A stretch of DNA of 64,000 nucleotides from an uncultured Alphaproteobacteria bacterium (lineage in GTDB: Bacteria; Pseudomonadota; Alphaproteobacteria; CBDUZE01), in NCBI GenBank assembly GCA_965371625.1, contig CBDUZE010000002.1, positions 177,668 through 241,667 of the forward strand, written 5' to 3'. Position 1 is the stretch's first letter. The number at the start of each line of letters is the position of its first letter. Positions 4,799 to 23,997 of this stretch are shown piece after piece. The notes under the pieces are model-generated. The model had not been told where the DNA came from. It did not search any database and saw only the letters and a program-made list of their open reading frames with translations. Position numbers and translations under genes: made by a program.

Positions 4799-4799
4799 C

Positions 4800-6902: not shown

Positions 6903-7273
6903 TCAAGCTGGCGATCATCCTGTTCCTGGCGCTGGCCCTGGTAATGCTGGTGCGGCGCGGCCTGATCCAGGTGGACCTCTCGTTTCCCTGGTTCCTGGCG
7001 ATCGTCGTTCTCGGCCTGCTCAGCACCCAGGAGACCTTCGTCGGTTGGATGGCGGCGCGGCTCGGCATCCTCTATGCGCCGATCGCCATCGTCTTCGTCA
7101 CCATCTTCATGCTCCTTGGGCTGGTGACCGCGCTGCTGGTCGGGCTCACCCGGCTCAGGCGCCGTCAGATACAGATCGTGCGCTATCTCGCCGCCCTGGA
7201 GCTCGCGGGTCAGGAAGCCGCGGGCTCGGGGCGCGGCCCGGGCGCTCAGCGGCCCGCCAACAAGGCGCGATAG
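6899..7273 (+). CDS. Small membrane protein, DUF2304-like partner of the GT2
   Basis: 124 aa with 3-4 TM segments ('MIKLAIILFLALALVMLV', 'FLAIVVLGLLS', 'IAIVFVTIFMLLGLVTALLVGL'). Its start is coupled (ATGA) to the GT2 stop. Confidence 0.5.
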   Translation: MIKLAIILFLALALVMLVRRGLIQVDLSFPWFLAIVVLGLLSTQETFVGWMAARLGILYAPIAIVFVTIFMLLGLVTALLVGLTRLRRRQIQIVRYLAALELAGQEAAGSGRGPGAQRPANKAR

Positions 7274-8397: not shown

Positions 8398-8423
8398 CTC
8401 GCCCCCGCGCGCCGAGCCCCGCC

Positions 8424-9500
8424 TCAACCGAGCAGCAAGCGAGAGAAGCTCGGCGCCACGCGCTCGAGCTCGAAGCGCGCCGGCAGCAGGCTCTGCCGCG
8501 GCCGCGAGACCGCTGCCGGCGCCACCCGGGCCATCGCCTGGACGAAGGCCTCGCCGGCCTCGGCCAGCGTCACCGCCCCTTCGGGCGCCGCCGCGGCGAC
8601 CTCGGCGATGCCGCCGGCTTCCGGCGTGGCGATCACCGGCGTGCCGCAGGCCAGCGCCTCGAGCGCCGCGTTGGGCATGCCTTCCCAGCGCGACGGCAGG
8701 AGGAAGGCGTCGGCGCCCGCGTAGGCCGCCCAGGGCGCCGCCACGAAGCCGGCGAAGGTGAGGCGATCGCGAAGCCCGAGCGCCGCCGCGCGACGCCTCA
8801 GGGGCTCGAGCTCGGGACCGTCGCCGAGGATGGTCAGGCAGGGCTCGCCGGCCAGGCCGGCGAACATCCCGAGCAGGCGATCGAACCCCTTCTGCCGCGA
8901 GAGCTTGCCGGCGGCGACGAAGCGGGGCCCCTCTCCCGCGACCCGCTGGGGCGAGCGGGCAGACTGGCGCAGCGCCGCGACGTCGACCGGATTGGCGAGA
9001 TAGGCGATCGATTGGGGCGCCACCGCGAAGTCCCGCACCAGCTCTTGGCCCATCAACCGCGACTGGCAAACGATGGTGTCGGCGCGGCGATAGAGCAGCC
9101 GGTAACCCAGGCGAAGCACCCCGCCATAGGCCAGATCGGGCAGGCTCTTGGACGGCGTGTTGGGCTCACGAATGACCACGCGGAGAGGCCCGGGCAGCAG
9201 TGGCTTCATGGCCAGGAGCGCCAGGTTGGCGTGGCCCATGGTGGCGCACACCACGTCGGGCGCAAGCCGCCGCAAGGTACGATAAAGCGCCGGCAGGGCG
9301 GCGCGCAGACGGCGGCGGCCGAGATCGTGGAGCGGCACGTCCTCGGGCAGGGCCGCGGCCAACGGGCCGCTGGTGTCGAACACCACGAGCTCGGGCGCGA
9401 TGCGCTCGCCGTCCACGGCGCCCGCCAGGGTCAGGAGCACGCGCTGGGCGCCGCCCCCGCTCAGCGAATGCAGCACGAAGACGACGCGAAGTTTGCTCAT
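8424..9500 (-). CDS. Glycosyltransferase family 4
   Basis: ATG 'MSKLRVVFVLHSLSGGGAQRVLLTLA' at 9500. GT-B C-terminus 'SRWEGMPNAALEALACGTPVIAT'. Confidence 0.8.
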   Translation of the reverse strand: MSKLRVVFVLHSLSGGGAQRVLLTLAGAVDGERIAPELVVFDTSGPLAAALPEDVPLHDLGRRRLRAALPALYRTLRRLAPDVVCATMGHANLALLAMKPLLPGPLRVVIREPNTPSKSLPDLAYGGVLRLGYRLLYRRADTIVCQSRLMGQELVRDFAVAPQSIAYLANPVDVAALRQSARSPQRVAGEGPRFVAAGKLSRQKGFDRLLGMFAGLAGEPCLTILGDGPELEPLRRRAAALGLRDRLTFAGFVAAPWAAYAGADAFLLPSRWEGMPNAALEALACGTPVIATPEAGGIAEVAAAAPEGAVTLAEAGEAFVQAMARVAPAAVSRPRQSLLPARFELERVAPSFSRLLLG

Positions 9501-9526
9501 TCGCGCCGCCAACGACCATGAGCCAT

Positions 9527-10657
9527 TCAGACGCGCCCTTGGGACGGGCCCAATACCGGCTTCGCATTGCCACCGCGTCCGGGTGTCCCCGCTAGCCAGG
9601 ACGCATACACCTCGCGAGAGGTCAGGAAAGTGAAAATGAAAACGACGAGTACCAAGTACCCGGTCCGGTAGCGTATGGCCGAGCCTGGATTCATGATTCC
9701 CAAGGGATAAGTCGAAAACAAAATCCAAAACGTCGTGAAAAGCCCGAGAATGAAATTATAGACAGGAACTTCTGGCAAGCGCTTAAGAAGAAAAAAGAGA
9801 AACATCGCGACCAAAATCGTACTTTCGATGAAGGACGAGATCTGTAAGATGCCCGTTGCCGCTTCGCTTAAGGTGGGACCGAAGAAGCTCTGGAACATGC
9901 CATAAGGCGCCTTCCAGAATACGTCGTATTGCTCCGTCCAATAGGGTTCTCGGGTCATTCGCCCAAAACCTACATTGAAATGACGTATGACTTCAAAGGA
10001 AAGTGCATCGATTTTATCACGAAAGGTATAAAGCGGAACAAGAGAAACAATGCCCACAGCTAGGGCGACGAACGCCTTCTGGCGAACCCGATATGCGATC
10101 TTCGAAACACCGATCAAGAATATGAACGCGATCACATACGGCAGCTTGAATATTGCGAGTGCTGCAAACGCAACTATGTGCAAGACGCTCAACTTCTCTC
10201 GATTGTAGTACATGTCAACAACATAGGAGCAACTAACCCCCACCGCGAAGACAACGATTGCTTCCTTTCCGGGAATCGAAGACCACACAGAAAACGATGG
10301 GAATAGAAGAATAAGTGCTACTCTTTTTCTGAACTTGGGCTCCAACGACATTAAGAACTTGACCAGCCCCACGAAAGCAACCGCCTGAAAGAACATGAAG
10401 ATCAAAAGCTCATTGCCGAAGCTGAGTATCTTAAAGAGACGTCCAAGATTCTGCGCTATGACGATCGCTATACCGCGCGATCCCTGGAGCGGGTCCGCCC
10501 CGAGCTGGACCACGTCAATCGCGGTGAAATCGGCACTGATGATTCGCGCTACGTCGCCGAGGCCGGTCAGGCGCGAGACGACAAAGAAGGCTAACGCGGA
10601 GTACGCGCAGCGATAAATGAACAGGAACACGTAGAAAGTGGGCCAGCCTATTGCCAT
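9527..10657 (-). CDS. Wzy-like O-antigen/EPS polymerase (polytopic membrane protein)
   Basis: ATG 'MAIGWPTFYVFLFIY' at 10657. About 10 TM. Low GC (~45%) embedded in a 68% GC locus. Adjacent to wzz. Confidence 0.55.
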   Translation of the reverse strand: MAIGWPTFYVFLFIYRCAYSALAFFVVSRLTGLGDVARIISADFTAIDVVQLGADPLQGSRGIAIVIAQNLGRLFKILSFGNELLIFMFFQAVAFVGLVKFLMSLEPKFRKRVALILLFPSFSVWSSIPGKEAIVVFAVGVSCSYVVDMYYNREKLSVLHIVAFAALAIFKLPYVIAFIFLIGVSKIAYRVRQKAFVALAVGIVSLVPLYTFRDKIDALSFEVIRHFNVGFGRMTREPYWTEQYDVFWKAPYGMFQSFFGPTLSEAATGILQISSFIESTILVAMFLFFLLKRLPEVPVYNFILGLFTTFWILFSTYPLGIMNPGSAIRYRTGYLVLVVFIFTFLTSREVYASWLAGTPGRGGNAKPVLGPSQGRV

Positions 10658-10727
10658 TGCTCGAATTTCGGACGCCGGCAAGGTTAGAGCTACAGGCCGC
10701 GGACGCAGAGCCCCAGCATTGACGAGA

Positions 10728-11735
10728 TCACCCTTCTCGCCGAAACAGGGCGACCAAAAGGATAAGCACGACGGCCAAGCCGAGCACGATCGCCACCGGA
10801 ATTCCAACCGATGCCGTCACCGAGGGCGAGGTCGGGATGTCGGAAACGAAGGCCGGCTCGATGATGCGGCCGGCGTAAGGCAGGGTGCTCTGAAGCATCA
10901 TGGCGGTATGCTCCTCGTTGGTGAGGAGCCCGATGAGGACGTCGCGCGTCTCCAACATCGAGGCGCTTCGCAGCTGTTCCTGAAGATAGGCTCGCCGTTC
11001 CGCAGTGGTCGCGCGATCCTGCTGGCGCAACAGCTCGTCGGCCTCGGCGTACACCGTGGTCAGGAGCTCGTAGGCAAAGTCGGGATCGGTGTGGGCGAAC
11101 GAGATACGCCGGAACGGCTCGAGCTTGAGCGTCTTGATCTCGATCGACGATTTGAGATACCTGGCCAGCGATTCGACCGTGGGCTCCGACCAGGTGCCGA
11201 GATGAAAGAGCCCCCGGAGGCGTTGTTCCCATTCGAATCTCCTGCCCGTGGGCCGGATCCATTTCCCTTCCTCGGGCGCCCACGATGCTTCGTAGACCTT
11301 CTGGAGGTACCCGTACTTCTGCTGCAGCAAACGAGCCAGGGTAAGCGAGGAGATCACCAGCTCCAGACGGTCGAAGGTCGTCGCCTGCTGCCCGCCGAGG
11401 TCGAGTCCGAAGCTCCTCGCCACACCCTTGAGACGGCTCGTCTGGCCGCCGGACTGCCCGATCGCGCCGCCCTGGGAGGGCGCAACGATCATTGCCGCCT
11501 CGAACTGCGGCACGAAATTGCGCATGTCCCTGAGGCCGTAGAGGGCGCCCAGGAAAACCAGCAGAAGGAGCAGCCATTTGCCGCGCCACACCGACCCGAC
11601 GAGAACCCGCAGATCGATGAGCTCCTCGCTCACGGGTCCGGCGACGGCGGTCGGGGCCGGGACGACGCCGGGGCTGGCGACCCGCGGCGAGCCTTGGGCC
11701 TGGTAGTCGGCGGGCTCCGGAACCTGCTCTGCCAT
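10728..11735 (-). CDS. Wzz/chain-length determinant (PCP-1 polysaccharide co-polymerase)
   Basis: ATG 'MAEQVPEPADYQ' at 11735. N-terminal TM 'WLLLLLVFLGALYGL', a long periplasmic coiled region, and C-terminal TM 'GIPVAIVLGLAVVLILLVALF'. 336 aa, so no kinase domain. Confidence 0.7.
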   Translation of the reverse strand: MAEQVPEPADYQAQGSPRVASPGVVPAPTAVAGPVSEELIDLRVLVGSVWRGKWLLLLLVFLGALYGLRDMRNFVPQFEAAMIVAPSQGGAIGQSGGQTSRLKGVARSFGLDLGGQQATTFDRLELVISSLTLARLLQQKYGYLQKVYEASWAPEEGKWIRPTGRRFEWEQRLRGLFHLGTWSEPTVESLARYLKSSIEIKTLKLEPFRRISFAHTDPDFAYELLTTVYAEADELLRQQDRATTAERRAYLQEQLRSASMLETRDVLIGLLTNEEHTAMMLQSTLPYAGRIIEPAFVSDIPTSPSVTASVGIPVAIVLGLAVVLILLVALFRREG

Positions 11736-12091
11736 GCCTGTGATCGAGGTTACCTTGGCGACGACACGTGCACCCCGCGACAGCCACACCCGCTGCCCCC
11801 GCGGCCGGCCGAAGAAACCAGGGCCCTCGTGGGCAATCGCGGGATTGCACAGGATCGTCGCAACTTGCGGGAACATGCCTAGCATACCTGAAGCGGTTAT
11901 TGAACAGTCGTGCATTCGCCGCCCGCCCGCATCGAGCGCGGGAATGGCCGGACGCGGTGCCTGCGGCCGGGGCAGCGGGGCGCTGGCGCGCGAGGCGCTC
12001 GCTCCCGGTTCTCCGGCGGCTTGATCGAGCGGGCCCGGCGCATCCCGGCACCTTGACCAAGCCGAGAAGCGCCAGCACTCTGCCTTCCGCG

Positions 12092-13252
12092 ATGACCCCC
12101 ACCCCTCGGACCAAGATCTGTCACGTCATCACCGGGCTGCCGACGGGCGGCGCCCAGTCGATGCTCGCCAACCTGATCTCGGGCTGCGACCGGGAGGCCT
12201 TCGAGATGGAAGTGATCTCGCTCACCGAGATGGGCCCGGTGGGGGAGCGCCTGGCCCGAATGGGGATCGCCGTCGCCGCGCTGGCGATGAGCCGCACCCT
12301 CCCCAACCCGGCCGATCTCCTTCGCCTCGGGGTCTGGCTTCGCCGCCGCCGTCCCCATGTGGTGCAGACCTGGATGTACCACGCCGATCTCGTCGGCGGC
12401 CTGGCGACGCGGTTTGGTGATCTGGCACCGGTGCTGTGGAACATTCGCCACAGCACCCTGGACCCCGCGGGCACCAAGAAAATGACCCGGTGGACGGCGC
12501 GGGCCTGCGCGCGACTGTCGCGCCACCTGCCGAGCCGCATCGTCTGTTGCTCCGAGGCCTCGCGAACCACCCACGCGGCGCTCGGCTACGCGGCCGACAA
12601 GATGCTGGTGATCCCCAACGGCGTCGACCTGTCCAGGTTCCGACCCGACCCGGGAGCGGCGGCCTCCTTCCGCCGCGAGATCGGAGTGGCCGGCGCGACG
12701 CCCCTGGTCGGATTGATCGGCCGCTTCCATCCCCAGAAGGACCATCGCGGCTTCGTCGCCGCGGCGGCCCGACTCGGAGCGCGCTTTCCCGAGGCCAGGT
12801 TCGTCCTTTGCGGCGATGGCATCACTTGGGAGAACGGCGAGCTCGTAGGCTGGATCCGGGAGTCCGGGTCGGCCGACAGGTTCCTGCTTCTAGGGCCGCG
12901 CGACGACGTGGCGCGAGTCGCCGCGGCGCTCGACCTCGCGGTCTCGTCCTCGGCCTTCGGCGAGGGCTTCAGCAACGCCGTCGTCGAAGCGATGGCCTGC
13001 GGCGTGCCTTGCGTCGTCACCGACGTGGGCGACTCCGCCTTTATCGTCGCTGACACCGGTTGGGTGGTGCCGCCACGGGACGCTGAAGCGCTCGCCGCCA
13101 CCTGCGCCGAGGCCCTGGAGATGGCGCCCGAGCGCCGCCGGGAGCGGGGCTCGGCGGCGCTCAGGCGCGCGACCCGGCATTTCGACCTCCCCGGGATCGT
13201 CGAGCAATACCAGCGACTCTATCTGGAACAGGCGCGCCAACCGCCCACTTGA
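12092..13252 (+). CDS. Glycosyltransferase family 4
   Basis: ATG 'MTPTPRTKICHVITGLPTGGAQSM' at 12092. GT-B C-terminal 'SSAFGEGFSNAVVEAMACGVPCVVTDVGD'. Confidence 0.8.
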   Translation: MTPTPRTKICHVITGLPTGGAQSMLANLISGCDREAFEMEVISLTEMGPVGERLARMGIAVAALAMSRTLPNPADLLRLGVWLRRRRPHVVQTWMYHADLVGGLATRFGDLAPVLWNIRHSTLDPAGTKKMTRWTARACARLSRHLPSRIVCCSEASRTTHAALGYAADKMLVIPNGVDLSRFRPDPGAAASFRREIGVAGATPLVGLIGRFHPQKDHRGFVAAAARLGARFPEARFVLCGDGITWENGELVGWIRESGSADRFLLLGPRDDVARVAAALDLAVSSSAFGEGFSNAVVEAMACGVPCVVTDVGDSAFIVADTGWVVPPRDAEALAATCAEALEMAPERRRERGSAALRRATRHFDLPGIVEQYQRLYLEQARQPPT

Positions 13253-13311: not shown

Positions 13312-16300
13312 TCAATCGAGGATTTTGCTCCAGTAGCGGGCGACCGACCTGAGGCTGCCCTCCTGGGTCAGGAAGTAAAGGCGGTCCGGCACCGAGACCA
13401 TCTGACCGCCGTCGCGCGTGAGCGGGCGGAAGCTGAACAGACCCTTCGCGCGACTCGAGCGCAGCAGCAACGTGTCGAAGGGTATGGTGATGAAAAAGCC
13501 CTTGTCGAAGCTGCCCTCCCCGAAGTCATCGAACGAGACATCGGTGAAGGTGGTCCAGGCGCCGACGCGCATGCCGCTGCGAAACTCGCGGGAAAGCGTC
13601 AGGGTGACGCCATGGTCGCCGGCCAGGTAACGACCGACCTGGACCATGCCGAGCAGGTTGTACCAGGGCATCTCGTAATAGAGGCTGAGATGGCCGGTGA
13701 TGACGTCGTAGCCCCGGAAGTCGAAAAGCTGGTCGAAGTCGCGCTGACGCACGTAATTGACGTCGAGACCGAGCGCCCACCGCGCCCCGAAGGGCCGGTA
13801 GAGCAGCTCCGCCCCGACGCCGCCGAACATCTCCTCGAAGATCCCCGCGCTGACGCGGGCGTACCACTCGGGCCGCGGCGAGAAGACATAGGACGCATGC
13901 ATATTGATGATGTTGTTCTTGCCTTCCTTCAAGTACCTCTGGATGTCGCTTCTCACCCGGGGAAGCTTGCTATCGGACGGGGTCCGCAACCGGTCGAAGT
14001 TGTCGACCATGTTGACGCCGAACCTGGCGGTGAGGCTCAGGCCCCTCATCACCTCCACGCGGCTCGAAAAGGAGGTGAAGAGCTGATAGAGATAGAACGA
14101 CTCCGGCCCGCCGATGTGCTGGCGCAGCGCCGGCCGGATGTCCCAGCTAAACGCGGGATAGCGGTCCGGGTTGAGCGAGGCGTCATCCGCGATCTCACCA
14201 TCGGCCGGCCCCAGGCTGGCGTTGCTCCAGATCTCCTCCGGGCTCCCATTACTGGCGAGCGCGGCCTCGAGATCCCGGCGCATGATCGTGACCCGACTGA
14301 GCTCCATGCCCCGGGCCATGGTGACGACGCCGATCTCCTCGACCGAGGCCGGGGCGTGGTTGGCGACGACGCGGGCGGCGCGGCCGATGTTGCGGGCGGC
14401 CTCGGAAAACCGGGTAGGGGTAATGTAAACGGTTACCCGTTGCTCGGTCACGTGCACGGCGTCGGTCTCGAGGCCCTCCTTGGCGAGATCCTCGATCAGC
14501 GCCGCGTTATCGATACCCTCCGGGGCCCGCTCCGAAGCCGTCGGGCCCGCCGCCGCGGCTTCCCCTTTCTCGGCGACCTGAAGATCGCCGCTCGCGGGGC
14601 CTGAGTCATCGGGCGAGGAGCGGCGGAGCGTCCAGCGCCGGACCTCCGCTCCGGCGTGCATGCCAACCACCGTGATCTCGTCCATCGGTTCGGGCACCGT
14701 GTTCGACACGATCTCGGCCGCGGTGCGGTAGTCGGCGTCGCCGGACATCCCCGGGGCGGAGATATAGACGGTCGTGGTGCGGTGGGAGATGTCGACCGAT
14801 TCGAGATCGAAGCCCTCGGCCTCGAGGCCGTCGAAAAGGCTGTCGGCGACGGCGCTGCGCTTCATCTCCTCGCGGCGCAAAACGACGCGCTCGCGTTCGA
14901 CCCCGGCGGCCACGGTGATGATCCTGACCTGCTTCACGGGCATCGGCAGCGTTCTCAGCACCAGCCGGGCGGCCCGGCGATCGGCGAGATGGCCGCCGCC
15001 GCTGGGCCCGCGCGAGACGTAAACCTTGGCCTCGGAGTGGGACAGGTCGAGCGATTCGACCTCGAAGCCCTGGGCCTCCAGGCCGTCGAAGAGATAGTCG
15101 ACGATGGCCATCTCCTCGACCTGACCGCGCTCGAAGGTGACGCTCTTGCGCTCGCCCTTGGCGACCTCCGCCACCAGCGTGATCCTCTCGACCGGGCTGG
15201 GAACCGCTTCGGCCACCAACTGCGCCGCCCTGGCCAGGGCCAGGGAATCGTCGTTGAGCGCGCCGCGCTCGAGATAGACCCGGGCCTCGACGTGGGAAAG
15301 CTCGACCGAGGCGACCTCGAAGCCCTCGAGCTCCAGTCCGTCGAACAAGCGGTCCACCGCCGCCTCCCGGTCGCCGGGGGAGGGCGCCGCGCCGAGGGGT
15401 CGGTCCGCCTCGGGCGCCGGTGCCGTGGTGGGTAGCGAAGGCGCCAGCACCTTAGCCAGCGCTTGGTCCGCTTCCGGAACCTCGGGCAGTGGCGCCGGTG
15501 ACTCGGCCTCGGAGCCGGGACGCGGCCCCACCGCCGGGGGCGGCCGATCGAAGGGCTTCGGCAACCCCGGCGCATTGAGGTCGGAACGCACCGCGAAGCG
15601 CAGCATCAGCGAGTTGCCGCGTTCAAGGCCGATCGAGGCGTCGAACCACCGGAACGGCCGATAGTTGAGGGCGAAGTTGATCGGCAGGTCGACGTCGAAC
15701 CGGTTGGCGAGGGGCTCGCTTTTGTAGTCGTTGCCGTCGAACTCGAGCTTGGCGGTGAGGCCCCTGATCGGGGTGCGGTATTCGACCCCAAAGAACGGTG
15801 AGACGCTCCTGCCGGCGAAATAATCGTCGAATGAGGGCCGCCCGCCGCGCCCGCTGTCGGAATCGCGGCGGTTGAAGAGGCCCGAGAAAACCCTCATCGG
15901 ATTGGGCCACAGCCCGCGGCTGCCGGCATTGCCCCAGGCGATGCCGAAACTGAAGTCGAAGTCGTAGTAGCGCTTGCTGGCGACGATGTACTCGCTGGAG
16001 AACAGCCCCGTCCCCAATCCATCCTGGATGCCCACGGCAAGGGCCGGAAAATACTGGCTCTCGCGCACGAGCCTGATCTTGATGTCGGCGCCGCGATCCT
16101 TGAGCGTCTGATCGCCGCTGAACGCGGCACTGGAAGAGAACAGGCGATTGCGGATGTCAGTGTACCGAAAAGTCGCCTCGAGCCAGGGTAGGGCGTGGAG
16201 GTTTATGAAGTAGCGGCGGTACTCATCGACCAGGGAGGCGCCCACGTCGAGCTGCCCGTCGGGGCCGAAACGGGCGGTGCGTGTCTGGAGCAGCCCGACG

Positions 16301-16461
16301 CCGCCGAAATCGCTGCTCGAGACATGGTCTTCCAAGGGCGCGGTGCTCGGCTGGCCGACCGCCGGCGGCCCCGTCAGCAGCGCCAGCAGGCCGGCGCAGG
16401 CCGCGACAGCCTTGGGATTCGCCGCCACGCGCTTGCGTCGCGAGCCACGAGCCCGTTTCAT
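13312..16461 (-). CDS. yjbH: YjbH/GfcD-family outer-membrane polysaccharide protein with four internal ~87-aa repeats
   Basis: ATG 'MKRARGSRRKRVAANPKAVAACAGLLALL' (signal peptide) at 16461. The N-terminal YjbH-type region and the C-terminal region ending '...RYWSKILD' match YjbH architecture. The central segment (aa ~378-745) is made of 4 repeats, 'D.LFDGLE..GF...SV..SH....VY'. Confidence 0.7.
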   Translation of the reverse strand: MKRARGSRRKRVAANPKAVAACAGLLALLTGPPAVGQPSTAPLEDHVSSSDFGGVGLLQTRTARFGPDGQLDVGASLVDEYRRYFINLHALPWLEATFRYTDIRNRLFSSSAAFSGDQTLKDRGADIKIRLVRESQYFPALAVGIQDGLGTGLFSSEYIVASKRYYDFDFSFGIAWGNAGSRGLWPNPMRVFSGLFNRRDSDSGRGGRPSFDDYFAGRSVSPFFGVEYRTPIRGLTAKLEFDGNDYKSEPLANRFDVDLPINFALNYRPFRWFDASIGLERGNSLMLRFAVRSDLNAPGLPKPFDRPPPAVGPRPGSEAESPAPLPEVPEADQALAKVLAPSLPTTAPAPEADRPLGAAPSPGDREAAVDRLFDGLELEGFEVASVELSHVEARVYLERGALNDDSLALARAAQLVAEAVPSPVERITLVAEVAKGERKSVTFERGQVEEMAIVDYLFDGLEAQGFEVESLDLSHSEAKVYVSRGPSGGGHLADRRAARLVLRTLPMPVKQVRIITVAAGVERERVVLRREEMKRSAVADSLFDGLEAEGFDLESVDISHRTTTVYISAPGMSGDADYRTAAEIVSNTVPEPMDEITVVGMHAGAEVRRWTLRRSSPDDSGPASGDLQVAEKGEAAAAGPTASERAPEGIDNAALIEDLAKEGLETDAVHVTEQRVTVYITPTRFSEAARNIGRAARVVANHAPASVEEIGVVTMARGMELSRVTIMRRDLEAALASNGSPEEIWSNASLGPADGEIADDASLNPDRYPAFSWDIRPALRQHIGGPESFYLYQLFTSFSSRVEVMRGLSLTARFGVNMVDNFDRLRTPSDSKLPRVRSDIQRYLKEGKNNIINMHASYVFSPRPEWYARVSAGIFEEMFGGVGAELLYRPFGARWALGLDVNYVRQRDFDQLFDFRGYDVITGHLSLYYEMPWYNLLGMVQVGRYLAGDHGVTLTLSREFRSGMRVGAWTTFTDVSFDDFGEGSFDKGFFITIPFDTLLLRSSRAKGLFSFRPLTRDGGQMVSVPDRLYFLTQEGSLRSVARYWSKILD

Positions 16462-16685
16462 CAATCCGATATGGTCGCGACGCTGGGCCATGTGGCCTCA
16501 AGCAAGGAGCGAGGAGCGCAGGCCTGGGCGGCCATCATAAGCGATGAGCGACGACGGCTTGGGAGCAAAAACGGTACCTCGATTAACCTTGCGCCGGGCG
16601 TCGGCAGTCACGTCACACCGGCTCGACGATGCAACCGGCATCGCCTTCGCCGCAGCACCTGCCATCCGCCGCCCTTCGGAAAGGT

Positions 16686-19631
16686 CTAATTGCTGCTTAA
16701 GACGGCGAGGGATGCCGCCGTTATGGCTACCTGGCTCACCAGCAGGGTCATGTCCTTGGCGAACTGCAACAGGTTGAGCGGCGCCGGGTCCTTCGGCACC
16801 ACGATCGAGCTCCCGGGCGGTATCTGCACGGGCGTGAAGTTCCAGGCGCTGACCGACACCGGCTGCGCCTCGCCGTTGGGATAGACCACGAAGACACGGC
16901 TTTCATCGGCGGAGCGCTGGAAGCTGCCGGCCTGCTGAATATAGTCTTGGGCGGTCTTGCCGGCGGCAAATTGCAACGCCCCCGGGTTGAGCACGTCGCC
17001 GGTCACCGAGACGAAGTTGGGGCGCTTGGGCATGAACAGCCTGTCGCCCGGCTCGAGCACCGTATCGAGATCGGGACGCACTTGCAGCACCGTGGGATCC
17101 GCCTCGATCACGACGCGGCCCAACGCCTCGACCGACTGCACCTGCTGCGACAGCTCCTGGAGCGCCAGTACGCCGCGCGGGTCCGCTCCCGACTGCGCCG
17201 CGACCACGGCAAGGGCCGAGTTGAGTTCGCGGGCGGCGCGATTGAAGCCCACCTGCTGGGCCTTCTTTACCCGTTCGCGGGTAAAAACCGCGCCATAGGG
17301 ATAGGCCTGCGCCGTCAGGCCGCCGGCCCGGGCGACGAGTTCGGAGAGGCGTTCGCCGCGGCGAATGTGATAGAGGCCGGGCCGCAGGAACTCGCCCGAA
17401 AGCAAGACCGGCCCATCGTCGCGGTCGCTGAAGATGGCGTTGACGCGGATGACGTCGCCGGGATTGATCGCGACCTGTTGGGTCTCGGCGGCGCCCATAT
17501 CGACGCGGCGGCGCGAGATCGCGGCCGAAGCCTGCCCCGGGTCGCTGGGAAACTGGGACAACTCCACCTGCGAGAGATCGGCCTCGCGGGTCAGGCCGCC
17601 GGCGACGGCGACCAAAGAGGAGAGCGGCGTGCCCGGCGTGATCGGATAGGCGCCCGGCCGCCGTATCTCGCCGTTCACCGCCACCACGTGCTCGAGCAGG
17701 AACGGCAACATATCGGGGAACTGGTCGTAAAGCGGGGGACACGGCAGGCGGTTGGTGAAGGCCAGTTCGCTCTCGACGTCGATGGCGCGGACGGCGTTGG
17801 AAAAGCGTCCCTTTCGGCTGCCGGAAACGATCGCGGCGACGACCCGCAGGCCCGCGCAGACCTCTGCCACCGGTTCTTTCTTCTCGTCGCTCTCGAGGAC
17901 GATGCCCTTCCGGATGCCGGCTTGACGGCCACCGGTGTCCAAGAGACCCTCCAACAGGTCGCGGCGATCGCCGCCCGCGGCGGTCTCCCGATCCGAGTCC
18001 TCGGAACGCTGGCGACGTGCCTCGGTCTCCGCCTGCCTGCCGACGATCGCTCGTTTGGCGCGCTCGAGCCCGGGAACCGGCCGTCCCAGCAGCACGTCCT
18101 GAACGTCGGTCGACGAGAGATAGCGGACGTCATCGGCGCTCAGCACGATCAGCCTGTCGCCGTCGCGCAGGGAGAAATCCTCCTGGTTGCTCAGGACGCG
18201 CTGCAGGTTGATGGGAAAGAGGCGCCGCGAGCGGGTCGACGGATCGGTGGTCTCGAGCACCGCGAACAGGAGATAGGGGTTGTCCCGCAGCCGGTCCGGA
18301 GACGCGACCAGCGCCCGCACCGTCGGAGAAGATGCCAGCGAGCGCCGCCCCGGGACCCCAACGTGCCCCACGAACTCGACCGACCCGAGCTGCACGTCCA
18401 CGCGGCGCTGAACGATGACGATGTCGCCATCTGATACCGGCACCGAGGGGTCTCGTCGCTCGCTGACCTGTTGACGCCCGGTCTGATCGAACGAGATGTG
18501 ATAGAACACGTTTCCGCGCGGCCGCAGCGCGCCGCCCGCGTACCCGAGCAGGTCGGCGATGGTGATCTCCGAGCGGCCCTCGGCGAACTCATAAATGCCC
18601 GGGCGCTTGGCGTCGCCCCCAATGGCAACCGTCGAGCTGATCGACGGTACGAAGATGCGATCGCCGTCAAAAAGACGCAGGCTTCGCCCCACGTTGCCCG
18701 AGATCAGCAGCTCGTAAAGGTCGATCCAGAATATCTCGTCACCGCGGTGGACCTGTATGAGGCGAAGGCTTCCGGTCTTCTTTACGCCACCGGCGAATCC
18801 GATGGCGTCGATTATCGTCGACAACCCGGTAAGCTGGTGCAGCCCGGGACTGCCAACCTCACCCACGACAATCACCGAAATCAGTCGCACCGAACCCACC
18901 GAGACGAAGACGTCGGTACCGAGCAGCGCCGTCGCCGTGCGCGCCTCGAGCTCGCGACGGAACTCGCCGAAGGTCCTTCCGGCGGCGGCAATGGGCGGCA
19001 TGTTGCCGAGCACCACCCGGCCCTCGCGATCCACCAGGACGGATTGGGTGCCGGTCTCCTGGCCGAGAAAGGTGATGATGAGCTCGTCGCTAATGCCGAG
19101 AATGTAGTCCTCCGAAATCGCCCCCGTGGTCAGCTCCTCGAGCTCGAACTCGCCATCGAAGAGCTCGTAACCGAACTGCAAGAGCGTTTCCTGGGCGCGG
19201 GTGCAGTAGTCCCGCTCGAGCCTGGAGAACTTCTTGAGGGTGCGGACCAGCCGTAGGTTTTCCTCGCTGATCTCACCGCGGCAGAAGTCCTCGACCAGCA
19301 TCAGCTCGATCTCGGTGAAGCTGTTGCGCAGTTCCGGAGCGAAACCCAGGATCGATGATTCCCGGCGCGGCCGTTCTCGCCGCTCGATCCCGGGTCGGCT
19401 GCCGGCGCGGCGCGCGCGCTCGAGCTCGTTGGTGGCGCCACCCAAGATGGAGCCCCTGCCCCGCCCGCCCCCCTGCTGCAGCGTGTCGAGCTGCTGGAGG
19501 AAGTCGAGCAGCCCGCTGCCTGCTTGTTGCGCTTGCACGCGGTGGGCCGCCGCGTATGTCGACAACCCGACGACAAGGGCGCAAAATATGACCGCTGGCC
19601 TCGCCCACCGCTGTCTACCTGTCCGTCTCAT
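16686..19631 (-). CDS. Polysaccharide export protein, Wza/KpsD-like with Poly_export domain plus about 5 SLBB domains (981 aa)
   Basis: ATG 'MRRTGRQRWARPAVIFCALVVGLSTYAAAH' carries a signal peptide with no lipobox Cys. 'YILGISDELIITFLGQE...VLVDREGRVVLGNMPPIAAAGRTFGEFRREL' matches the Poly_export/PES motif. It is followed by repeated SLBB-like 'PGxY.l..g..l.dai..AGG' units and a C-terminal amphipathic helix. The track start at 19637 is a TTG. Confidence 0.75.
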   Translation of the reverse strand: MRRTGRQRWARPAVIFCALVVGLSTYAAAHRVQAQQAGSGLLDFLQQLDTLQQGGGRGRGSILGGATNELERARRAGSRPGIERRERPRRESSILGFAPELRNSFTEIELMLVEDFCRGEISEENLRLVRTLKKFSRLERDYCTRAQETLLQFGYELFDGEFELEELTTGAISEDYILGISDELIITFLGQETGTQSVLVDREGRVVLGNMPPIAAAGRTFGEFRRELEARTATALLGTDVFVSVGSVRLISVIVVGEVGSPGLHQLTGLSTIIDAIGFAGGVKKTGSLRLIQVHRGDEIFWIDLYELLISGNVGRSLRLFDGDRIFVPSISSTVAIGGDAKRPGIYEFAEGRSEITIADLLGYAGGALRPRGNVFYHISFDQTGRQQVSERRDPSVPVSDGDIVIVQRRVDVQLGSVEFVGHVGVPGRRSLASSPTVRALVASPDRLRDNPYLLFAVLETTDPSTRSRRLFPINLQRVLSNQEDFSLRDGDRLIVLSADDVRYLSSTDVQDVLLGRPVPGLERAKRAIVGRQAETEARRQRSEDSDRETAAGGDRRDLLEGLLDTGGRQAGIRKGIVLESDEKKEPVAEVCAGLRVVAAIVSGSRKGRFSNAVRAIDVESELAFTNRLPCPPLYDQFPDMLPFLLEHVVAVNGEIRRPGAYPITPGTPLSSLVAVAGGLTREADLSQVELSQFPSDPGQASAAISRRRVDMGAAETQQVAINPGDVIRVNAIFSDRDDGPVLLSGEFLRPGLYHIRRGERLSELVARAGGLTAQAYPYGAVFTRERVKKAQQVGFNRAARELNSALAVVAAQSGADPRGVLALQELSQQVQSVEALGRVVIEADPTVLQVRPDLDTVLEPGDRLFMPKRPNFVSVTGDVLNPGALQFAAGKTAQDYIQQAGSFQRSADESRVFVVYPNGEAQPVSVSAWNFTPVQIPPGSSIVVPKDPAPLNLLQFAKDMTLLVSQVAITAASLAVLSSN

Positions 19632-20331
19632 GCCCAAGACCCCAAATACTCAGCAGAGGTTCGGCGAGGCCGCGCTCCCGCGACGACGCGTGCTCGCTTG
19701 CGGCACCGCGTTCCTGCTTGCTGGGTGCGCGGACGTTCCGGTGCTGGCCAACGCCGTCGATGCCCTGAGGATTGCGGTCATCGGCGCGCCCGACCCGCCG
19801 ATCGAGCGGGCCGCGATCGCGAAATTACCATATGCCTCGATGAGCGCAAAGATCGGAAAGGGCGCGCGTGGCATGCTCGTTCTGGGGCGCTACGATGGCG
19901 ACGATTTACACTGGGTCGCGGGCGGTTCGGGCATCATCGTCACGCGCCACGGACGCGTGGTCAAGACCGCTGGCCTTCCCGTCAACCTCAAGGACACCCG
20001 CGCCTTCCGCGAGGACCCGGTGGCGACGCGGCTGCATCGGCTGGAAAAGCCGGTGGAATACGTCCGTTACGTCGATATCGAACCGGGTCACCGTTACGAC
20101 CTGCCGATTCGGTCGCGGTTCGAGACCGTTGGACCGCAGCGTATAACCATCGTCGAGATCGAGTTCAAGACCGTGCTCGTGCGCGAGGTCAACGAAGCCG
20201 GGACCATGAACTGGAAATTCGAGAACCTCTACTGGGTCGATATCTTCGACGGCTTCGTATGGAAAAGCCGCCAGCATATCGCGCGCGGGATGCCGCCACT
20301 CGAACTCGAGGTGCTCAAACCGGCGGCATAA
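19630..20331 (+). CDS. yjbF: YjbF/GfcB-family lipoprotein
   Basis: ATG at 19630. Signal peptide with lipobox 'AFLLAGC'. About 233 aa. Located in a yjbEFGH-like cluster. The start overlaps the divergent wza-like start (CATG). Confidence 0.6.
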   Translation: MPKTPNTQQRFGEAALPRRRVLACGTAFLLAGCADVPVLANAVDALRIAVIGAPDPPIERAAIAKLPYASMSAKIGKGARGMLVLGRYDGDDLHWVAGGSGIIVTRHGRVVKTAGLPVNLKDTRAFREDPVATRLHRLEKPVEYVRYVDIEPGHRYDLPIRSRFETVGPQRITIVEIEFKTVLVREVNEAGTMNWKFENLYWVDIFDGFVWKSRQHIARGMPPLELEVLKPAA

Positions 20332-20429
20332 GCGCCTGACCGGGGGCGCCGACCCGCACAGGCCTCGGCCTACGCGGCGCAGGCTCCGGTCCTCAACGTG
20401 ATTCGATCGCTTCGCGGTCCGGATCAGCG

Positions 20430-20705
20430 TCACTGCGCCGGCGCATTGGTGGCGGGGGTGGCCGTCGTGTTGTTGTCGGAGCTCGTGGCGCTAAGGGCGA
20501 TGACGATGGCGATCGCCGCGGCGAAACCGACGCCCGTGGCAACCAGCGCATCACGCAGCCTGTCGTCCTTATCGCTGAGGGCGCTCACGCCCGCGGCCGC
20601 GCCCTTGCCGGTATTGGTGGCCTGGGATTGGGCAAGCGCCGGCCCTGGGGAGGCCCCCAGCACCAAAGCAGCGAGGTACGAGATCAAGGTCTTCTTTGAA
20701 ACCAT
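20430..20705 (-). CDS. yjbE: YjbE-like small secreted Ala/Gly/Thr-rich protein
   Basis: 91 aa, 'MVSKKTLISYLAALVLGASPGPALAQSQATNTGKGAAAGVSALSD'. Signal peptide plus a low-complexity region, the size and composition of YjbE. Confidence 0.6.
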   Translation of the reverse strand: MVSKKTLISYLAALVLGASPGPALAQSQATNTGKGAAAGVSALSDKDDRLRDALVATGVGFAAAIAIVIALSATSSDNNTTATPATNAPAQ

Positions 20706-20887
20706 GTCGAATCACAACGACCCATCCGCCGCTGCGAGCATTCACCCCCTAGCGGACGAGCGGCACCAAATTATCACAGATCGTCTTGCCGGCCAAGCTC
20801 AGGTCAGGTCGGGCCTGGCGCCCCGGCGCCTGGTCGATGCCCCCGGGTTGCGAAGGCCAGGCCGCGAGAGTCGCTGTCGTCGCGCGA

Positions 20888-21157
20888 CTATCTGGTCTGG
20901 GTGGCGGTCGAGGAGGTGGTGGCAGCACCCGGGGAGCGGTTGCCGTCATCGAGGGCGAGGGCGAGAACAGGCAAGAGCAAGGCCTGCCCGCCCAGCCCCA
21001 GGAACTGGAATGGGATCGCCAGCTTCAGCGCTTGCTGCACGCCCGCGACCACCCCGAAGCCGGTCTTGGTGGCCTGGGACCTCGCCTGACCCGCAGACGG
21101 AGCGCCGGCGAGGACGAGCGCGAGAGCAGCGACGATCTGAATCTTCCCCGGAATCAC
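20888..21157 (-). CDS. Second YjbE-like small secreted protein (tandem paralog)
   Basis: GTG start 'VIPGKIQIVAALALVLAGAPSAGQARSQATKTGFGVVAGV'. Shares the 'SQATxTGxGxxAGV' core with the 20430..20705 gene. Confidence 0.5.
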   Translation of the reverse strand: MIPGKIQIVAALALVLAGAPSAGQARSQATKTGFGVVAGVQQALKLAIPFQFLGLGGQALLLPVLALALDDGNRSPGAATTSSTATQTR

Positions 21158-21545
21158 GGTGTTAGCTCTAAGTGCTTCGCCCCTTAGATCGTAATCCGAC
21201 TGCCACCTTGATCGCAAGTGCACTGGCCCGACGGAGGAATGAGCCGCGCCGCGCCGGACCCGCCTCCCGCCTCGCTGGAATGACCGCGGAGACGCTAGGC
21301 GCGGCCATCCCGCGGCAGCGCGCCCGACCGCGAGCGCACCAAGCGCGGCGCCTCGGAGGACCGCGGCGGAGGCTCGATTCGCCGGCGGCCCGGAGCCGCC
21401 CGGGGCCTCGATCGCGAGCCTCGCGGACACCGCGTCGAGCAACTGTTTGCTTGCCCGAAGCTCGAGAGCCGTGTTATCTGGCTCCCCGCACCGCCGCATC
21501 GGTTTGCGCCTCTCCCCGCCCGTCACTCGGCAGCGATCATCCGGT

Positions 21546-22472
21546 ATGAGGTTTCTCGGCTCCCTTATTGCCCTGGTCTTGGCGCTGGTCGTTGCCGGGC
21601 AGCCGTCGGCCCGCGCCGAGCAGTCGAGTCGCTACCACATCGGCTATGAGATCCTGCTGGCGGGGTTTTCGGTCGGCAACATCGAGGTGACGGTCGAGCT
21701 CTCCAAGAGCGAGTACCATGTCATTGCCGATACTCGGAATTCAGGCTTGCTGCGGCTGCTGGCCGGGTTCACATCGCGGGCCGAAAGCAGCGGCCGGACC
21801 AGCCTCGGGGAGGTAAGACCGCTAACCCATCGGGCCGACAACGTGTGGGTTGGCGAGAAGAGATACGTTCGCAACGCCTATGGCGACGATGGCGGCGTGA
21901 GCGTGGAGGTGCTTCCCTCCGCCGCCGCCGACGGGCGCGACCAGGTCCCCAGTCACCACCGGGCGGACACCATCGATCCCTTGAGCGCCGCTGTGCAGGC
22001 CAGCCTTCGGGCCGTCGGGGCGCGGGCCTGTCAGGGCAGCCTGGCCGTGTTCGACGGGCGGCGGCGCTACGACCTGCACTTCCGGCCCGTGGGCGAGGAG
22101 GAAGTATCGGGGCCGTTCTACAGCGGACCCGCCCTTCACTGTCATATCGATCTCGAACGCATCATCGGTTTCTCGCGCGACCCCTGGCTGCCCCGGGCCA
22201 AGTCGTCGGACGCGGCGGAGATCTGGTTCGCGCCCGTCGCGGCCGACTTGCCGCCGCTGCCGACGAGAATGATGACGGACCTCGGGCTGGGCACCGCCGA
22301 GGTCATCCTGGTGTCGCTGACCCCCGCCCCGGCGCCCCCGCGCGACCACGAAGCGCGGCCCTCGGCGCCCACCAAATCGGGAGCCGACAGAGCCGGTCAG
22401 GTCTCGCCGTCCGGGGGCGATGTAAGCGGCGACGCCCTCACCCAACTTCTCGAACCGAGGCGCCGCCCCTGA
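21546..22472 (+). CDS. Secreted DUF3108-like protein
   Basis: ATG 'MRFLGSLIALVLALVVAGQPSARA' signal peptide. 'YHIGYEILLAGFSVGNIEVTVE' start typical of DUF3108. Family assignment from memory only. Confidence 0.4.
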   Translation: MRFLGSLIALVLALVVAGQPSARAEQSSRYHIGYEILLAGFSVGNIEVTVELSKSEYHVIADTRNSGLLRLLAGFTSRAESSGRTSLGEVRPLTHRADNVWVGEKRYVRNAYGDDGGVSVEVLPSAAADGRDQVPSHHRADTIDPLSAAVQASLRAVGARACQGSLAVFDGRRRYDLHFRPVGEEEVSGPFYSGPALHCHIDLERIIGFSRDPWLPRAKSSDAAEIWFAPVAADLPPLPTRMMTDLGLGTAEVILVSLTPAPAPPRDHEARPSAPTKSGADRAGQVSPSGGDVSGDALTQLLEPRRRP

Positions 22473-22497
22473 GCCGAGCGCCGCCGCGGCGGCGGGG

Positions 22498-23997
22498 TCA
22501 GAAGCGAAACGTCCAGGTCGCCTCTATCGAGGCCAGGAAATCGCTCGTGCCCGGCGTGTTCGGTTCGTCGTCCTGGAGCCGCAGCTCGATGCCGAAGGTG
22601 CCCTTGCGCCAGGGAACGTTGAGGCCGATTTCAAACAGGTTGATGTCCTCGTTGTTGAGGCTCAAGGGTCGAGGGCTGGCGCTACCGCGATTGAGCTCGG
22701 CGTGATGGTAGGCCAGCCGGTAGGTCCAGTCGCGCAGGTCGGTCAGCGTGCCCACCACCGAGAACAGACGGGCGTCACCGTCGAGACTGTGGCCGAGGGC
22801 GCGGCGGCGATAGCGATAGCCGCTCTTGTAGATGAAGTGGTTGTAGAAGACGCCGAGACGGGCGTCGCTGAGGGGCAGGCCTCCCTGATAGGAGGTGCTG
22901 TCCGAATACTCGGTGGTCAGGCGCCACAGCCCCCCCTCGCCACCGATGCCGCCCCACAACGTCAGGCCGACAACCAGCCCCGCCAGGTCGGGATAGATGA
23001 GAAATTCCTCGGCCTCGCCGATGAGCTGACCGTACAGGGTGAAATACTGGCCGGCCAAACTCGAGGAGAAGCGCAGGTCGAGGCCCTCGAGCTGATTGCC
23101 GGGATCGTTGAGGGGATCGCCGGTGAAATCGTTGCCGATGAAGGAGTCGACGAAGGTGTCGAACTCGCAGGGCCGGCCGCCACCGCAAATCATCAGCGCG
23201 CGGGTGGCGCCGATCTCCAGGCCGGGCAAGGGATTGAACGCCACCCGGAAGCCGAGCACGAGCGGATTCGAGATCACCCGCCCACCCTCCTCGAGGACGC
23301 CGCCGAAGGCGTTGAACTGCCACGGTCCGATCCAGCTCAGCCACGGGTTCTCGAACGCCGTCGGGTTGCGGCGCATCAGCCCCACCCGGGGGAAGGGGCG
23401 CGCGTTGTTGGAAAGGATCAGGCTGCTCACCTCGCCCGGTCCCCACCACTGATCGAGGGTGCCGCCGTAGACGATCCAATTGGCGATGCTCAGGGCGAAG
23501 TAGCTGTCGTCGAAGGCAAGATCGCCGCCGCCGAAATCGATATCGCTCTGGTAACCGACGCTGAGCCGGGCAGCCATGGTCCTGGTCATCCACTCGGCCC
23601 GGGCCCGGGCATCGATCTCGCGCCGCCCGCTGGGACCGAAGTCGCGCACCAGCGCGGGCTCGCTCGAGAACCTGCCGATGGCTTCCATCCTGAAGCGCTT
23701 GATGGCGGTTTCCCGGGCCATGCGGTTCCGCACCCGCCTGAGGCTGCGGCGGACGTGCGGCGGCAGTCTGGACGCGTCCTCGACAACGAGGCGATTGGAG
23801 ATTTGTGCCCAGGGAATCGGCCACGTCGTGACCAGGCCGTCGATCAGGCCGTACTGGGTGAGCACCTCGATATCGCTTCTCAGCACCGCGTCGCCGACCT
23901 CGGCCCACGGCGACGCCGAGGCGGGCGTCGGAGCGGCCGAGAGGGCCCCCAGCAGGCCCAGCAAGCCGACGATCAAGGCCGCCCGAATTCTCGCCAT
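22498..23997 (-). CDS. wzi: Capsule assembly protein Wzi-like outer-membrane beta-barrel
   Basis: 499 aa, signal peptide 'MARIRAALIVGLLGLLGALSAAP'. 'LTQYGLIDGLVTTWPIPWAQI' Wzi-like N-terminal helical region. Aromatic-rich beta-strand pattern ending in C-terminal Phe ('ATWTFRF'). Adjacent to the wza/yjb genes. Confidence 0.6.
   Translation of the reverse strand: MARIRAALIVGLLGLLGALSAAPTPASASPWAEVGDAVLRSDIEVLTQYGLIDGLVTTWPIPWAQISNRLVVEDASRLPPHVRRSLRRVRNRMARETAIKRFRMEAIGRFSSEPALVRDFGPSGRREIDARARAEWMTRTMAARLSVGYQSDIDFGGGDLAFDDSYFALSIANWIVYGGTLDQWWGPGEVSSLILSNNARPFPRVGLMRRNPTAFENPWLSWIGPWQFNAFGGVLEEGGRVISNPLVLGFRVAFNPLPGLEIGATRALMICGGGRPCEFDTFVDSFIGNDFTGDPLNDPGNQLEGLDLRFSSSLAGQYFTLYGQLIGEAEEFLIYPDLAGLVVGLTLWGGIGGEGGLWRLTTEYSDSTSYQGGLPLSDARLGVFYNHFIYKSGYRYRRRALGHSLDGDARLFSVVGTLTDLRDWTYRLAYHHAELNRGSASPRPLSLNNEDINLFEIGLNVPWRKGTFGIELRLQDDEPNTPGTSDFLASIEATWTFRF

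Follow-up and report, generated by a model that had tools for sequence, protein, structure and literature searches.

A GfcC-like module at the C-terminus of a Class 2 polysaccharide exporter encoded between yjbF and yjbH in an alphaproteobacterial glycan gene cluster

The closest described relatives of the locus analyzed here are the Gfc/Yjb (group 4 capsule type) systems of Escherichia coli, encoded by the gfcABCDE-etp-etk and yjbEFGH operons, and KpsD, a protein for polysaccharide export at the outer membrane (OPX) from the same species. The locus in question occupies positions 13312-23997 of a 64-kb stretch of high-GC DNA (~68% GC) from an uncultured alphaproteobacterium, hereafter called the window, and holds a gene for a large OPX-type exporter lying between genes of yjbF/gfcB and yjbH/gfcD type. 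In E. coli, GfcB and GfcC associate as a heterodimer (KD ~100 nM), which is a better binder of GfcD than each partner by itself (PMC8592465). The single middle domain of the GfcD/YjbH barrel protein has been predicted to bind peptidoglycan (Solan et al. 2021, PMC8346858), and Larson et al. (2021, PMC8592465) place it at the second barrel's mouth. KpsD, in turn, typifies the Class 2 OPX proteins, which have the domain order Poly_export-SLBBn-GfcC and are divided into subclass 2A, without a terminal Wza_C-like helix, and subclass 2B with such a helix, HHpred having been used for that distinction (Saïdi et al. 2022, PMC9603273).

The same survey reported that YjbH homologues adjoin 5 Class 2A and 19 Class 2B OPX genes, with Wzi adjoining 9 and 48, respectively (Table 1 in PMC9603273), and that YjbH/GfcD homologues are encoded beside Class 1, 2A and 2B proteins but never beside Class 3, which lacks any pore. 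Its authors also proposed a contact of the integrated GfcC module with the barrel, noted a likeness of the GfcD and YjbH C-terminal barrels to the PgaA porin, and suggested that partner barrels may serve the Class 2 OPX proteins (PMC9603273). A fusion of another kind is OtnG of Burkholderia thailandensis, in which GfcC is joined to GfcD (cited in PMC8592465). An exporter-GfcC fusion next to YjbH/GfcD and Wzi is thereby already catalogued and its functional meaning already suggested in print, and the system is not uncharacterised in the sense that the first-pass annotation of the window had assumed, the Poly_export-SLBB-GfcC architecture being the published Class 2 (KpsD type) one.

Seven genes had been placed in the region by that annotation, and all seven are present at or close to those positions, on open reading frames (ORFs) with a coding-type GC content at third codon positions (0.78-0.87). 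The labels YjbH, YjbF, Wzi, DUF3108 and Wza/KpsD-like exporter are borne out by the scores of the Pfam hidden Markov models (HMMs). The genes, and the parts of their products on which the argument depends, are the following (AF2, AlphaFold2).

13312..16461, minus strand: yjbH/gfcD-type double β-barrel protein, 1049 aa (Pfam YjbH, 739 bits, E=6e-222)
14257..15375, minus strand: four tandem α/β domains inside YjbH, residues ~363-735 (repeats in the sequence, AF2 model, repeat HMM)
16686..19631, minus strand: exporter (OPX), 981 aa (Pfam Poly_export, SLBB, SLBB_2, Caps_syn_GfcC_N and Caps_syn_GfcC_C)
16695..16772, minus strand: predicted hydrophobic C-terminal helix of the exporter, 26 residues, 954-979 (AF2 secondary structure)
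16788..17363, minus strand: GfcC-like C-terminal module of the exporter, residues ~757-948 (Pfam, hhalign, PDB profile search, Foldseek)
18897..19115, minus strand: Poly_export (PES) domain of the exporter (PF02563, 41.8 bits; hhalign to GfcE/Wza)
19630..20331, plus strand: yjbF/gfcB-type lipoprotein, 233 aa (Pfam YjbF, 142.8 bits, E=1e-41)
20430..20705, minus strand: small secreted protein 1, 91 aa (signal peptide, T-rich tail)
20888..21157, minus strand: small secreted protein 2, 89 aa (paralogous to protein 1)
21546..22472, plus strand: DUF3108 secreted protein, 308 aa (Pfam DUF3108, 63.4 bits, cutoff 26, E=3e-17)
22498..23997, minus strand: Wzi-family outer-membrane protein, 499 aa (Pfam Caps_assemb_Wzi, 242.8 bits, E=8e-72)

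Two of the starts have alternatives, an ATG at 16491 giving a YjbH of 1059 aa and the start at 19588 used in database gene calls giving a YjbF of 247 aa.

The first-pass annotation had suggested that a GfcC function might be fused into the exporter, and four kinds of comparison concur in placing GfcC at the C-terminus of this protein. With Pfam, the exporter matched Poly_export (cutoff 28 bits), SLBB in four stretches (131.8 bits) and SLBB_2 in two (101.3 bits), and its tail exceeded the cutoffs of both GfcC models, Caps_syn_GfcC_N with 24.2 bits (cutoff 22.1) and Caps_syn_GfcC_C with 41.4 bits (cutoff 20). Using hhalign with a profile of the exporter made from 35 homologues (alignment A1), residues 776-944 aligned with residues 58-219 of E. 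coli GfcC (probability 95%, E=3e-8), and residues 174-368 with residues 83-288 of GfcE/Wza (probability 98.6%). When the profile was compared with PDB sequences, Wza (2J58) was found at 173-364 (E=4e-21) and GfcC (3P42) at 804-939 (E=7e-11), the two regions not overlapping. The AF2 model of the exporter, with a mean predicted local distance difference test (pLDDT) score of 75 and visible β-grasp units, was likewise matched by Foldseek to Wza (2W8H, E=2.5e-15) separately from its match to GfcC 3P42, the latter having E=8e-11, a TM-score of 0.48 on the target and ~210 aligned columns of 225-234. In the model, the GfcC-like module consists of two β-grasp domains together with a helical hairpin (786-833). 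Judged from its sequence, the C-terminal module of the exporter is homologous to stand-alone GfcC.

A separate YjbG/GfcC, which had been reported as missing, is indeed absent from the 64-kb window, where the sole site matched by GfcC and YjbG in tblastn searches lies inside the exporter gene. A scan using one genome per species gave 403 related loci, 80 of which were examined, and in 79 of these 80 no stand-alone gfcC was found by tblastn within 10 kb of the exporter; the single match outside (L081) was a broken exporter gene. The examined loci belong mostly to uncultured Alphaproteobacteria (Rhodospirillaceae, Minwuiaceae and others), with Inquilinus, Azospirillum sp. RU38E and an isolate of the Hyphomicrobiales also represented, as well as one betaproteobacterial and two gammaproteobacterial metagenome-assembled genomes (MAGs). 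Homologues of the exporter form at least 642 protein clusters at 45-100% identity, with PF06251 (GfcC_C) present in 117 of the 120 clusters listed, nearly all of them 830-1050 aa long.

The exporter has a Sec-type signal and is not a lipoprotein. Its terminal helix, with the consensus SQLAITAASLAV, is conserved across alignment A1 and has a mean hydropathy of 1.36, versus 0.11 for the terminal helix of GfcE/Wza and -0.24 for that of GfcC. Pfam Wza_C gave no match in the exporter, with GfcE as control reaching 57 bits. Residues 1-170, which are helical, and a helical or disordered insert at ~499-647 match no Pfam family. Four cysteines, C117, C143, C592 and C631, are invariant in alignment A1 and could make two conserved disulfides.

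Having a PES domain, later SLBB domains and a GfcC-like C-terminus, i.e. the three features by which Class 2 is recognized, the exporter is a Class 2, KpsD-type OPX protein. It shares its domain order with KpsD, and KpsD of E. coli CFT073 aligned with it in two high-scoring pairs, exporter residues 153-489 on 69-411 with 27% identity and 785-922 on 375-509 with 30%. The exporter is nevertheless nearly double the size of KpsD (981 versus 558 aa), its extra parts being a helical N-terminal region of ~170 aa, a central insert of ~300 aa with more SLBB domains, and the invariant cysteines. Moreover, the current Pfam GfcC models miss KpsD altogether, whereas the exporter tail passes their thresholds, and by this measure the exporter tail is nearer to free GfcC than the KpsD tail is. 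The setting differs as well, for the exporter gene belongs to a glycosyltransferase cluster in which no KpsMT ABC transporter is seen, and its coupling to yjbH and yjbF is direct.

Compared with the E. coli gfcABCDE-etp-etk and yjbEFGH operons, the locus shares a GfcD/YjbH homologue (43% identity over the N-terminal barrel, 36% over the C-terminal part) and a GfcB/YjbF homologue (29%), and the order A/E, B/F, C/G, D/H is retained with the GfcC-homologous module in its place, the GfcA/YjbE position being filled by small Thr-tailed proteins with signal peptides. GfcC is a separate protein in E. coli and an exporter domain here, and GfcE of E. coli is a Class 1 Wza lipoprotein with Wza_C, whereas the exporter of the window is of Class 2 and has neither a lipoprotein signal nor Wza_C. 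In addition, yjbF is inverted here and genes for Wzi and DUF3108 have been added, the E. coli GfcD/YjbH has one middle domain as opposed to four in the window YjbH, and Etk and Etp gave no tblastn match in the window. The gene order had at first been described as scrambled, together with the orientation. That description does not hold, since small proteins (E), yjbF (F, inverted), exporter (G) and yjbH (H) are collinear with yjbEFGH/gfcABCD; only yjbF is inverted, its divergence from the exporter and yjbH having been noted correctly.

This layout is fixed and recurs in at least 50 genomes. In the window, the exporter and yjbH lie on one strand with a gap of 224 bp. Of the 66 related loci with room for it, 54 (82%) had yjbH after the exporter and co-directional with it, and yjbF was just upstream of the exporter in 50 of 69. 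The trio of exporter, yjbF and yjbH was also found in a gammaproteobacterial locus (L080, Nevskia), in a betaproteobacterial one (L076, Burkholderiales), which has the same layout as the window (small protein, inverted yjbF, exporter, yjbH), and in a divergent Rhodospirillales locus (L077). The wider context was alike in ~20 loci, with a tetratricopeptide repeat protein gene, ispE, a gene for a hypothetical hydrolase-like protein, in some of them DUF3108, and small ORFs, followed by yjbF, exporter and yjbH and then often a Wzz-like protein or a family 4 glycosyltransferase (GT4). Among the 54 related loci carrying yjbF, that gene was on the opposite strand in 52 and co-directional only in L077 and L080, and the inversion is for that reason regarded as a lineage feature. 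An invertible yjbF segment was also considered and rejected, the gene being flanked only by a 15-nt inverted pair (87%), one of 12 similar pairs in 1.5 kb, with the orientation fixed in 52 of 54 loci.

In the stretch 19588-19637, the divergent ATG codons of the exporter (19631, the start that includes the signal peptide) and of yjbF (19630, the start that includes the RR-containing signal) overlap by 2 nt. In 22 related loci, the spacing between these starts, as extrapolated, was between -21 and +158 bp with a median of 18 bp. No intergenic promoter space is left, so that promoters would have to be inside coding sequence, or transcription of the exporter and yjbH would come from the small-protein genes and pass through yjbF in antisense. 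Scanning the module for promoters and terminators gave hits at chance level only, and Rfam and tRNA scans of the window gave nothing. We found no description of such head-to-head yjbF/exporter starts in the accessible literature.

The YjbH protein could be aligned with E. coli GfcD using BLASTP in two parts, residues 58-329 on 33-300 (43% identity) and 677-1044 on 320-691 (36%), and E. coli YjbH was matched as well. Its AF2 model, with a mean pLDDT of 77, has barrels at 70-294 and 749-1011, a disordered segment at 318-362, and four middle domains of α-β-β-α-β-β build at 365-444, 445-529, 530-613 and 652-727. The ~350 residues by which the protein exceeds its E. coli counterpart thus sit between the barrels, as a Pro/Ala-rich linker and three more copies of the middle domain, a unit of ~85 residues having the recurring motif LFDGLEaeGFEvesvdlSH. 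An HMM of the repeat found four copies in the window YjbH, one in E. coli GfcD and between one and four across 54 related loci, the count being a lower bound for distant relatives, and YjbH length among the relatives varied from ~730 to 1100 aa. Growth of the array along with exporter length was considered and rejected, since copies vary from one to four while the exporter stays at ~920-1060 aa, with no correlation. When the YjbH model was compared with PDB structures by Foldseek, only generic porins and a weak match to the ring domains of PrgH from a type III secretion system (E=0.015) came up. We found no description of a tandem YjbH middle-domain array in the accessible literature.

YjbF matched PDB 2IN5 (YmcC/GfcB) with E=2.6e-16 and E. 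coli GfcB with 29% identity over 212 aligned residues, i.e. near the full length of GfcB (BLASTP). Its signal is RRRVLACGTAFLLAGC, with the lipobox LLAGC. This signal peptide (19630-19730, plus strand) comprises 33 residues up to the lipobox Cys and contains RRR, and the homologues in alignment A5 keep RR-x-x-L ahead of L-A/G-G-C. The signal looks like that of a twin-arginine (Tat) lipoprotein, whereas the signals of E. coli YjbF and GfcB are short and of Sec type.

Upstream of yjbF, on the exporter strand, the related loci have one to three small ORFs in tandem. In the window, protein 1 has a signal peptide, the motif QSQATNTGKG, a hydrophobic segment and a T-rich tail, and protein 2 has the same architecture with 33% identity to protein 1. 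Across the family (alignment A3), a signal peptide, a nearly invariant QSQxxxTGxGxxAG and a Gly/Ala-rich stretch are followed by a hydrophobic segment rich in Ala/Val, an acidic patch that is often DDDD and a Thr/Ser-rich tail. E. coli GfcA and YjbE are built in the same way, with a signal peptide, an AVGVA-type hydrophobic stretch, a patch of D/G and a tail rich in T that has TSTQ or TTR at its end. The first-pass annotation had called the two proteins YjbE-like, an assignment that failed by HMM and hhalign: the Pfam YjbE HMM did not match them (nor does it match E. coli GfcA), hhalign to YjbE and GfcA paired the signal peptide only, and BLASTP was negative. The C-terminal half of the family did align by hhalign with a GfcA-like protein of the Burkholderiales locus L076 (probability 91%, these being low-complexity sequences). 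This protein of 89 aa (L076, 3025-3294, plus strand) has a tail, AASNNGNEDSGSSSSTSTSTSTR, closely like the E. coli GfcA tail AANDSGDGGSHNTSTTTSTTR, and it may link the alphaproteobacterial family to GfcA. Homology to YjbE/GfcA not being demonstrable, the small proteins are GfcA/YjbE-like by position and architecture only. We found no description of this conserved family in the accessible literature.

The genes for Wzi and DUF3108, which had been counted as parts of the module, are accessories outside its conserved core, for they are rare among the related loci, near the exporter in 2 and 9 of the 80, respectively. DUF3108 was at the same position in all nine, while Wzi occurred at the position seen in the window only within the species cluster of the window itself, being near the exporter also in L082. 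The Wzi protein matched PDB 2YNK (E=7e-37, residues 34-433 on 5-393), its Pfam match spanning profile positions 16-366 of 392, and the NCBI annotation of a sister MAG names a 'capsule assembly Wzi family protein' and a 'YjbF family lipoprotein'. A distant relationship of DUF3108 to GfcB/YjbF, to which a putative YmcC-like fold would point, was not supported by sequence comparison (hhalign probability 0.5%, no PDB sequence match).

We consider, at a probability of about 0.7, that these genes specify the outer-membrane end of a machinery for surface-polysaccharide export and assembly, of the Gfc/Yjb (group 4 capsule) type, in which a Class 2 OPX protein replaces Wza and a separate GfcC. Homology and conserved adjacency were observed directly, and from the biochemistry of the E. 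coli proteins we infer how the parts would work together. The exporter would oligomerize as Wza and KpsD do, with the polymer being carried across the periplasm, and its built-in GfcC module would act in cis as free GfcC does in E. coli, by binding YjbF. Via YjbF, the module would attach the exporter to the α/β domains that YjbH has in the periplasm, and the glycan conduit would thereby be tied to the double barrel. As outer-membrane exit we would favor the hydrophobic C-terminal helix of the exporter itself, because this helix is conserved and of membrane length and because of the survey pattern for Class 3; YjbH/GfcD never being encoded beside Class 3 OPX proteins, the barrel would not simply be a stand-in for a missing pore. 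YjbH and YjbF may instead form a coupled accessory machine that deals with the small proteins and their Thr tails or attaches the polymer to the surface, and Wzi would have been added in the lineage of the window for lectin-type surface retention.

Several points weigh against this proposal. The AF2 models are those of monomers, with low pLDDT at the C-terminal helix of the exporter, and the lack of a Pfam Wza_C match means that a helix spanning the outer membrane is not established; at a hydropathy of 1.36, the helix could even be an inner-membrane stop-transfer segment. No function has been established for GfcABCD even in E. coli (PMC8592465), and the small proteins are, at the level of sequence, without detectable homology to YjbE or GfcA. 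Furthermore, a clade that includes Inquilinus (L045, L049-L053, L055, L057 and L059), and that accounts for most exceptions to the core layout, has exporters of ~43% identity that keep the GfcC-like module, with no yjbH or yjbF within 10 kb, so that the module apparently can work without adjacent partners.

The best surviving alternative, which we regard as possible but doubtful, is a composite translocon in which the exporter does not cross the outer membrane and its GfcC module and YjbF plug into YjbH, the exit then being the PgaA-like C-terminal barrel of YjbH in the manner of the Wzp porins for Myxococcus Class 3 OPX proteins. The missing Wza_C match, which the GfcE control does give, and the end of the hhalign alignment with GfcE at residue 368 are in line with such an arrangement, as are the tight same-strand pairing of the exporter and yjbH genes, the PgaA-like nature of the barrels and the published suggestion of partner barrels for Class 2 (PMC9603273). 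In the Myxococcus case, an OPX gene is paired with a barrel gene as here (PMC9603273; Schwabe 2022, PMC9601211), but the exporter of the window is untruncated, having a GfcC module and a terminal helix, and Wzp is an 18-stranded barrel whereas YjbH has two barrels and is accompanied here by a GfcB-type lipoprotein. The composite arrangement is also at odds with the absence of YjbH/GfcD beside Class 3, the very class needing a porin (PMC9603273), with the conserved hydrophobic helix of membrane-spanning length, and with the exporters of Inquilinus type that have no adjacent yjbH.

A second alternative, less likely again, holds that two independent systems are neighbors here. The exporter would then be a self-sufficient KpsD-like translocon whose GfcC-like tail is merely an ancestral SLBB pair, and YjbH, YjbF and the small proteins would be a separate secretion device, with the small proteins leaving, for example, through a FapF-like N-terminal barrel. 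As is generally known for group 2 capsules, KpsD functions in E. coli without Gfc/Yjb proteins; related exporters exist without yjbH or yjbF, and yjbF is transcribed oppositely to the exporter. There is also published speculation on amyloid-like or GfcA-type export through GfcD (PMC9603273, PMC8592465). Two unrelated systems would, on the other hand, fit poorly with the exporter sitting exactly in the G slot, flanked by F and H, in loci of alpha-, beta- and gammaproteobacteria, with yjbH adjacency at 82%, with the scores of the exporter tail on GfcC-specific Pfam models on which E. coli KpsD does not score, and with the existence of GfcC-GfcD fusions. Of these fusions, OtnG, going by its published description, is like the exporter in having GfcC fused to a neighboring component of the same machinery, with the difference that GfcC is on the N-terminus of the barrel in OtnG and on the C-terminus of the exporter here, and that the extra length of the window barrel protein consists of repeats of its own middle domain. 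Taken together, the OtnG and exporter fusions support exporter, GfcC and GfcD as one unit.

Least probable, and rather improbable in our view, is a single fixed supercomplex of exporter, YjbF and four-domain YjbH in this alphaproteobacterial lineage, with separate channels, in which the glycan may leave through the exporter helix or the C-terminal barrel and the Gly/Ala-rich small proteins through a FapF-like N-terminal barrel, these proteins being possibly glycosylated on their Thr tails as a covalent surface anchor of the capsule; if true, a definite task would be found for GfcABCD/YjbEFGH, which have long lacked an explanation, and the natural fusion would be a Rosetta-stone handle on it.

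With regards to the polysaccharide itself, the genes preceding yjbH in the window are the following.

57..13252: glycan-synthesis genes, i.e. DegT aminotransferase, epimerase, one family 2 glycosyltransferase (GT2), four GT4 and DUF2304 (Pfam)
4755-6044: multi-transmembrane protein without Pfam family, 429 aa (hydropathy)
9527-10807, minus strand: multi-transmembrane protein without Pfam family (hydropathy; 376 aa in database gene calls)
10728..11915, minus strand: two-transmembrane chain-length-determinant-like (polysaccharide co-polymerase, PCP) protein with no kinase domain (Pfam Wzz, 24.9 bits, cutoff 25.5)

The cluster had been described as Wzy-dependent, which these genes do not demonstrate. 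No Wzx, recognizable Wzy, initiating transferase or ABC transporter was found in the window, and the Wzz score is just under its cutoff. The start of the window cuts the cluster, so that Wzy-dependence is plausible. The PCP-like protein, with hydrophobic segments at 104-122 and 372-390, is probably the inner-membrane partner; its homologues were close to the exporter-yjbH pair in 24 of the 80 loci, most often directly downstream of yjbH, and comparison with KpsE and the PDB gave no meaningful match. The two multi-transmembrane proteins belong to no Pfam or NCBIfam family. The family of that at 9527-10807 comprises at least 111 clusters and lacks a Pfam domain, and an attempt to name a Wzy through these homologues failed, all of them being annotated as hypothetical. 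One distant member has a UniRef name beginning 'Glycosyltransferase RgtA/B/...', and the protein is a candidate polymerase or GT-C enzyme. The 429-aa multi-transmembrane protein, the GT2 and the small DUF2304 membrane protein are encoded together at 4755-7273 (plus strand), a trio that may be a GtrA/GtrB/GtrC-type set for periplasmic polymer glycosylation, which it resembles.

Genes beyond 24 kb are housekeeping ones. Three further observations concern that part of the window. A low-GC island at ~38000-42100 (47-53% versus ~68% elsewhere), with ORFs of 316 aa (38986-39936) and 700 aa (40011-42113), is probably foreign DNA. Two paralogous pentapeptide-repeat proteins of 353 aa are encoded ~1.5 kb apart at 46478-47539 and 49091-50152 (both minus strand), in a stretch of lower GC content (57-61%). 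Finally, a CcrM-like DNA methyltransferase having N6_N4_Mtase and RAMA domains (44465-45553, plus strand) fits Alphaproteobacteria.

What GfcABCD/YjbEFGH do has been an open question since 2005, GfcB, GfcC and GfcD of E. coli being known to bind one another but for no established purpose. That one outer-membrane unit is involved is already in print as a suggestion, and the gain made here is limited to that extent. What is added is the gene order collinear with yjbEFGH, the spread and constancy of the layout in Alphaproteobacteria, the abutting divergent starts and the closeness of the exporter tail to GfcC, together with structural details such as the variable YjbH middle-domain array, the hydrophobic terminal helix and the small-protein family. 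The locus also offers a conserved test case, its layout being shared by the cultivable relatives Azospirillum sp. RU38E and Hyphomicrobiales UR115, and the Inquilinus clade would provide a natural control for whether the GfcC module needs YjbH and YjbF. The presence of GfcC on the end of an exporter encoded beside YjbH and YjbF in hundreds of genomes, taken together with the Burkholderia GfcC-GfcD fusion, argues that these proteins work as one outer-membrane unit.

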